Below are positions 1,546 to 2,878 of a stretch of DNA of 64,000 nucleotides, piece after piece. A model generated the notes under the pieces. The model had not been told where the DNA came from. It saw only the letters and a list, made by a program, of their open reading frames with translations, and did not search any database. Made by a program: the position numbers and the translations under genes. This DNA is from Gammaproteobacteria bacterium (lineage in GTDB: Bacteria; Pseudomonadota; Gammaproteobacteria; JABABF01), in assembly GCA_965237805.1 (NCBI GenBank), contig OZ250153.1:416001-480000 (forward strand), in the 5' to 3' direction. Numbering within the stretch: position 1 is the first letter of the stretch; each line of letters begins with the position of its first letter.

Positions 1546-2878
1546 TCACGATGTGCCAAAAGGATGGTGCCGAATCAGGCACTGGGAGCGCTCCGGACCG
1601 GTCGAGTACTCATTATCAATTTATTCATTTTTATTTATCCCCTACGATGTCGATAGGCACACCGACGAACTCCTCGATGCGCGCCAGATAATCGCGTGCG
1701 GCCGACGGCAGCGATGCCATGCTGTCGGCGGCTGCGGTCGAGGCAGCAGGCCAGCCCGGCCAGTCCTCGAACACCGGGCGCAGAGGCGCACCGCCCAGCA
1801 CCACTGACTCGGCATCGTTTTCGTAGCCCACACCCAGCCGCAATGTCGACAGGCCGTCGAGCACATCCAACTTGCTCAGCGCCAAGCCGTCGACACTGTT
1901 GATCTGCACCGTGCGGCGCAAGGCCACCAAGTCCAACCAGCCGCAACGCCGCCGACGGCCAGTGGTGGCCCCGTATTCCTCACCGCGCTCGAAGAGATGT
2001 GTGCCCACCGCGCTGTCGGCATCCAATTCGGTGGGGAATGGACCGTCGCCGACCCGTGTGGCATAGGCCTTGGCTACCCCTAACACCGCATCGAAATGGC
2101 GCGGCCCACAACCGCTGCCGCTAGCCGCATTGCCAGCCGTGACGCTGGAGGAAGTGACATAGGGATAGGTGCCGTGATCTAAGTCCAACAGCGCCCCCTG
2201 CGCCCCCTCGAACAACACCGCCGCCCCGTCGGCGCGCAACTCGATCAGCATTTGCGGGATATCGGCCAAGAGCGGCAACAGCCATTCCCGCTGCGCCAAG
2301 CACTGTTTGCCCAATTCCTCGACATCCAGTGCTGGCTCACCGTAATAGGATGTCAGCAGAAAATTGTGGTATTCCACCAGCTTGGTGAGCTGCTCAAGCA
2401 AACGCTTAGGATCGCTCAAGTCGCCCAAGCGCAGAGCGCGGCGTGCGGCGCGATCCTCATAAGCTGGCCCGATGCCGCGGCCGGTGGTGCCAATCGCCGT
2501 GCCACCACCACACCGCTCACGGGCCCGATCCAGCGCCTCGTGCGTGGGCAACAGCAGCGGGCAGGCCGGGCTCAGACGCAGGCGCTGTCGCAGGCCGGTC
2601 ACACCACTGTCTTCCAGCGCGTGCAGCTCTGCACCTAGAGCATCCGGCGACACCACCACCCCACTGCCGATCAGACCGAGCACACCGGCATGGAGAATGC
2701 CCGAGGGAATGAGATGCAACACCAGGCGCTGCCCCCCCACCACCAAGGTGTGACCAGCGTTGTGCCCACCTTGGAATCGCACCACAGCGGCGACTCGCTC
2801 AGCGGTGATGGCATCGATCAACTTGCCCTTGCCCTCATCACCCCACTGCAAGCCGAGCGCGACGACAAAGCGACTCAT
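1546..2878 (-). CDS. purA: adenylosuccinate synthetase, interrupted near its 3' end by a 37-nt insertion (1606-1642)
   Basis: [22 protein letters not shown] and [10 protein letters not shown] motifs. The ORF stops at PIDIVGDK* (1631), but the conserved tail [19 protein letters not shown] lies at 1605-1546 in another frame. Confidence 0.93.
1606..1642. other. 37-nt AT-rich insertion inside purA
   Basis: GTACTCATTATCAATTTATTCATTTTTATTTATCCCC has 9/37 G+C in GC-rich context. Removing it restores ...IDIVSTGPER... Confidence 0.85.

Follow-up and report, generated by a model that had tools for sequence, protein, structure and literature searches.

A 37-base AT-rich block splitting purA in a deposited gammaproteobacterial genome: a probable assembly error or rare variant

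In the deposited genome of this gammaproteobacterium the adenylosuccinate synthase gene purA is interrupted near its 3' end by a 37-base AT-rich block. Our preferred reading, to which we assign a probability of about 0.6, is that purA is intact in the organism and that the block arose at a variable junction through an error of assembly or consensus, or from a minority molecule, and was copied from accessory DNA of the same sample. The block would then be a short copy of AT-rich accessory DNA, which in that sample lies at a distance of 551 bases from a second, diverged purA 3' end. It could have reached the deposited sequence by either of two routes: the assembler or polisher may have mis-resolved the structurally variable junction between tRNA-Leu and the purA 3' end, or the consensus may have followed a minority molecule. 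Some reads probably carried the block, because assemblers rarely invent a clean insert with two junctions. Unless stated otherwise, positions are those of the window, that is, the whole stretch of 64,000 nucleotides that was analyzed.

The purA gene lies on the minus strand with its start at 2875, in the usual arrangement hflK-hflC-hisZ-purA. Its body (1644..2875, minus strand) was recognized with NCBIfam NF002223, PDB matches and tblastn, and runs through ...VPIDI to the second base of the following Val codon. The first-pass annotation had reported that a 37-nt AT-rich insert splits the gene, and the deposited sequence confirms it: translated on the minus strand, the product reads ...GVPIDIV, continues with GDK and stops, and the block has a GC content of 24%. 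The truncated PurA scored 519.3 bits against NF002223 (cut-off 402; profile positions 4-413 of 430) and 456.1 bits against TIGR00184 (cut-off 395.55). Both curated equivalog models were thus above their cut-offs, but the match is short at the C-terminus: the C-terminal 17 profile positions of NF002223 are absent from the reading frame, the alignments with PDB 3hid and 1ade (E 1e-141 or better) end at residue 414-415 of 431-432, and the product stops just before the STGP(D/E)R motif. The STG segment forms part of the guanine-binding site of PurA, and the truncated enzyme would plausibly be impaired.

The conserved tail had been described as intact in another frame, and this description held. 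Bases 1605..1546 translate into the 19-residue purA tail (letters withheld) in the next frame relative to the purA body, and the detached tail with its stop codon (1546..1606, minus strand) is contiguous with the body in the run contigs described below and in 22 parsed relatives. Removal of 37 nt was said to restore IDIVSTGPER, in agreement with the run contigs, which read ATC GTC TCG ACC. As the uninterrupted allele contains ATC GTC TCG, the block is best placed at 1607..1643 (minus strand) instead of the 1606-1642 first proposed; the restored protein is identical under either placement. The tail, with its 19 codons, is too short for the break to be dated.

Comparison with relatives gave a uniform picture of the purA 3' end. 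The PurA of a same-genus genome (76% protein identity) ends uninterrupted in ...VPIELISTGPERGQCLIERHPFATD followed by the stop codon, and two proteins of 87% and 78% identity (P0002 and P0004) are full length (431 and 427 residues, respectively) and contain ...IDIVSTGPER... in one piece. A total of 39 loci were fetched and examined. The C-terminus could be parsed in 22 of them, and all 22 carried an uninterrupted (I/V/L)(I/V)STGP(D/E)R motif; the other 17 were missed by the C-terminus pattern or were incomplete. No purA insert was present among the same-genus genome, the 22 parsed loci, P0002 and P0004. The detached tail is identical to that of the same-genus genome at 14 of 19 residues and to that of P0002 at 16 of 19.

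Two public runs from a single sample, X1 and X2, yielded an uninterrupted purA; they contain 78% and 74%, respectively, of the words sampled from 1200-2400. The evidence from these runs consists of Logan contigs placed on the stretch, not of raw reads; such contigs lose rare variants, and their depth is one rough figure per contig. In the main contigs (X1 record 6, 1688 nt, depth 33.3, no differing letters; X2 record 11, 12,110 nt, depth 19, two differing letters) the segments 1546-1606 and 1644-2400 are adjacent and the 37 bases are skipped. Base 1606 is joined straight to base 1644, and purA is whole. The depth of this joined form is close to that of the neighbouring chromosome, the adjacent chromosomal contigs over 1200-1370 and 1200-1429 having depths of 38.2 and 13.3. 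Because the longest records of X1 and X2 reach 138,118 and 275,523 letters, their contigs are DNA assemblies. The joined form is therefore DNA, which speaks against removal of the block at the RNA or translation level, an option put forward in the first-pass annotation. The joined DNA also argues against fixation of the block. A relative in run X3, about 87% identical, is without the block as well; run X6 gave no contig over the stretch and so counts neither way.

Except for the block and the stretch below 1546, X1 is identical to the deposit over about 1,000 bases, which suggests that it stems from the same population. We infer that the X1 and X2 runs and the deposited assembly represent one population and, with the runs so taken, that the block is without function. 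The first-pass annotation had listed an assembly chimera among its options and had proposed read mapping to decide on it. The run contigs, which are the closest stand-in for such mapping, join the flanks directly and place the block elsewhere, in favour of an artefact or a minority variant.

The block differs from its surroundings in composition, a 40-base interval over it having 25% GC against 57-75% in the flanks and a genome mean of 61.6%. It has stops in all three sense frames and a GTA at both ends. A repeat scan of the block and its flanks found neither an inverted repeat inside the block nor a target duplication, so that the reported lack of terminal inverted repeats was borne out. The same is true of the statement that the window holds no second copy. 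The 37-mer occurs once in the 64-kb window with up to 3 mismatches allowed (0 expected from 100 shuffles), it is single-copy in the whole genome, a single contig of 1,725,584 bases, and no other place in that genome shares a 14-mer with it. Outside its own genome, an exact 37-mer scan returned no match in metagenome_contigs, genome_contigs and viral_contigs, and no copy with up to 3 mismatches was found in 30 relatives. Since the only blastn matches of the block among phages and plasmids were short and AT-rich (E 0.03 or worse), its donor was not traced past the run contig.

In the runs the block occurs in another context. Bases 1605-1644 (40 letters) were found without a mismatch within X2 record 10 (1122 nt, depth 3.8), and this contig of about 1.1 kb also bears a diverged purA 3' end, in the same orientation and 551 letters from the block. 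X1 record 5 (1047 nt, depth 20.7) has the same joint with 551 letters between, the 1605-1644 piece not being among the matches listed for it. The diverged copy corresponds to 1714->1644 with 4 differences and to 1605->1518 with 12, joined without the block, which amounts to 16 differences in 159 bases (roughly 90% identity). In the orientation of the second contig the 40-mer has stops in all three frames. The upstream part of that contig therefore cannot be an intact purA; what it carries is a purA 3' fragment adjoining other DNA. The second contig may come from another organism, its depths (20.7 and 3.8) being below chromosomal depth. A second purA fragment was not found in the deposited genome. 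In both contexts the block stands between T and CT in the purA sense. The common flanking bases number only 2 and 1. This is about chance level, and therefore no simple template-switch or overlap artefact is evident.

The region beyond the purA stop codon is itself variable. A tRNA-Leu(CAG) gene (1344..1430, plus strand; ARAGORN; Rfam tRNA, 54 bits) is convergent with purA. It is followed by a unique 87-base filler without Rfam match (1431..1517) and by a 21-base copy of the tRNA-Leu 3' end (1518..1538, plus strand), which is 100% identical to 1410-1430 and lies 7 bases beyond the purA stop. Run-contig depth is 0 over 1446-1486, within the filler. Exactly at position 1546, where the stop codon ends, the main contigs of X1 and X2 part from the deposit and continue with 190 other letters; two 16-letter motifs taken from these letters have no match in the deposited genome. 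It seems, then, that the deposit lacks DNA present in the genotype that dominates the sample. The point of divergence is some 60 bases away from the block.

Neither repeat nor filler is present in the same-genus genome, where the purA stop is followed by 9 bases and then by the tRNA-Leu 3' end, or in the X3 relative, where 21 other letters replace the filler. A DNA search of 10 relatives with 1431-1760 recovered only the tRNA repeat and the purA end, with no second purA fragment and no filler. The 21-base direct repeat around the 87-base filler (1410-1538) looks like the signature of a tRNA-integrated island that has been almost wholly lost. As in genomic islands at tRNA 3' ends, a direct repeat of the tRNA-Leu 3' end flanks extra DNA; the difference is that only 87 gene-less bases separate the two copies, a remnant at most, and that the purA block lies outside the repeats.

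We also asked how sound the remaining assembly is. Of 28 ORFs scanned in the first 34 kb, 25 had a family match and 3 had none. None of the 25 matched ORFs showed a C-terminal shortening like that of purA, and the assembly is therefore not generally frameshifted. Genome-wide, 76 sharply bounded AT-rich islands were found, 39 of them without a frame open across +/-150 bases; inspection by eye of the 14 islands that lie between same-strand ORFs, with purA read alongside, revealed no other split gene. Within the window an AT-rich cluster extends over 57874-58771 (genome 473874-474771) and includes one stretch of 162 bases with 27% GC or less, compared with 61.6% for the genome. Similar multi-kb islands are numerous in the rest of the genome (384-397 kb, 768-771 kb and 876-879 kb, among others). 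They were probably acquired, and their composition is that of the 37-base block. Beside an AT-rich island outside the window, at C1:~309434-309500, we observed a short tandem run of CCCCATGTGG(C/T)(A/G)CC-like units. Two further ORFs drew attention by their long N-terminal extensions: the longest hisA ORF (26499-27590, minus strand) encodes 364 residues with the profile starting at residue 102, and the longest mutY ORF (28055-29806, plus strand) encodes 584 residues with the profile starting at residue 224. Both extensions are probably spurious, the overhang of frames that stay open in GC-rich DNA.

Several known ways of inserting or removing short DNA were considered, and none of them is supported for the block. 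An insertion sequence or MITE does not fit a block that has no inverted repeats, no target duplication and one copy in 1.73 Mb. Off-target integration of a CRISPR spacer, raised in the first-pass annotation, is not supported, as no Cas1 was found in the genome (7 of 14 controls positive), a k-mer spacing scan of the genome detected no CRISPR array and the flanks carry no duplicated target. Outside the window, from C1:1212006 onward, a tRNA-D-arm-like 20-mer occurs six times, mostly at a spacing of 83-84 bases, and probably marks tandem tRNA genes, not a CRISPR. Repair-mediated capture was also proposed initially; for capture by Ku-dependent end joining the support is lacking, as Ku (PF02735) was not found in the genome, the Bacillus subtilis control being positive. 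A bulge-helix-bulge or self-splicing intron does not suit 37 bases that have no structure and no Rfam match, and bacteria are not known to have the archaeal splicing endonuclease.

The main alternative, a real insertion fixed in the sequenced clone, is unlikely in our estimate, though it is one to be reckoned with. According to it an AT-rich accessory 37-mer splits the Val codon after its second base, and purA is an ordinary loss-of-function or hypomorphic allele. The junctions are clean in the deposit, the assembly is otherwise sound in that no matched ORF is shortened like purA, and a donor sequence exists in the same sample, all of which favour such an insertion. In addition, the dominant X1/X2 genotype differs from the deposit just downstream of purA, so that the deposit may stem from a separate variant, fixed for the block. 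The cost of a true break argues in the other direction. The first-pass annotation had suggested looking for a second purA, and tblastn found a single one in the genome; in the protein collection the truncated 415-residue product is the sole PurA of the organism, and an intact twin was not found there. The purB gene is intact and above its cut-off, apt (TIGR01090) was not found in the genome (13 of 14 control genomes positive) and neither was a TLC nucleotide transporter, for which the control was silent too. AMP supply would rest on the single purA, with purB present and apt not found. Given this gene set a true purA knock-out would probably be costly, and with a fixed insertion AMP supply would fail. 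Nor does the genome offer Ku or Cas1 for the capture of a fragment, and X1, which points to the same population, has the intact allele at about full depth. A side reading, compatible with the preferred explanation as well as with a fixed insertion, is that the dominant genotype carries an integrated element at the junction of the purA 3' end and tRNA-Leu, with a purA 3' copy of its own, and that the block is a scrap of this element. We consider it doubtful. It would account for the roughly 90%-identical copy of purA 1714->1518 beside unrelated block-bearing DNA, for the other DNA that begins right after the purA stop in the main contig, and for a 21-base tRNA repeat and 87-base filler that the same-genus genome lacks. 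On the other hand, no integrase or element sequence was seen in the loose end, which is visible for just 30 letters, the second contig with its depth below that of the chromosome may belong to another organism, and the tail of the deposit equals that of the main contig, so that a simple excision scar does not explain the block. Prophage e14 of E. coli, integrated in icd and accompanied by the 3' pseudogene icdC, offers a parallel (PMC13626634): the purA locus in the runs likewise has a second, diverged 3' end beside foreign DNA, and foreign DNA at the gene end. It differs in that the second purA 3' copy is seen in the run contigs only and not in the deposit, in that no integrase or element was recovered here, and in that e14 leaves an intact chimeric gene and not a 37-base block.

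It is extremely improbable that the block is real but skipped, either by a ribosome hop as in T4 gene 60 or by RNA or DNA processing, with full-length PurA still being made. Bypassed inserts span 27-55 bases, a range into which the 37 bases fall, and the unmutated purA tail and the GTA at both block ends would also suit such a mechanism. However, a bypass of the gene 60 type from GTA to GTA would resume at CTC GAC CGG, in the wrong frame, and would yield VLDRSG... and not STGPER. There is no stop codon directly after the take-off GTA, GGG GAT AAA preceding the TAA. A 100-base RNA around the block does not fold better than shuffled sequences (z = +0.90; 164 of 200 shuffles fold at least as well), and Rfam detected only the tRNA over the locus. 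Moreover, none of the relatives compared has an insert, and the existence of the joined form as DNA removes the need for skipping. The 50-nucleotide gap bypassed in T4 gene 60 and the mitochondrial 'byp' inserts of Magnusiomyces (10.1101/2022.08.31.505936, PMC5462505, 10.1101/2024.12.09.627546) resemble the purA case in being short non-coding inserts within a conserved gene whose downstream part is intact; unlike them, the purA block has no frame-restoring codon pair, no adjacent stop, no stem-loop and no conservation, and an insert-free DNA form exists. Very improbable, too, is a real, heritable micro-insert shared by two unrelated contexts of one population, namely purA in the deposited clone and, in the runs, a site 551 bases away from the purA 3' copy. 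It would be a very small insertion, mobile or templated, with neither terminal repeats nor its own transposase, and cells with the block in their only purA would survive by skipping it or by cross-feeding.

The preferred reading, an intact purA with an error or minority molecule in the deposit, places the block beside the assembly or consensus errors and minority haplotypes that arise in single-contig genomes at structurally variable sites such as prophage or island junctions. It shares with this class its location close to where deposit and runs diverge, an uninterrupted purA assembled from the runs and the presence of the extra sequence elsewhere in the sample. What departs from the class is the form of the insert, since a clean 37-base insert with two junctions and almost no junction homology is an atypical product of an assembler.

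Taken at face value, the deposit would describe a small-genome gammaproteobacterium that has lost its only adenylosuccinate synthase or that skips a 37-base insert. Because the runs show an intact gene, metabolic models and recoding searches should not rely on the purA break. The case also calls for caution with single-contig genomes, in which short, compositionally foreign blocks near island or tRNA junctions need read checks. In all likelihood the block reflects misassembly or a rare variant, not a novel biological device; the locus is still modestly interesting for its variability, its tRNA-Leu repeat and, in the sample, the second copy of the purA 3' end.
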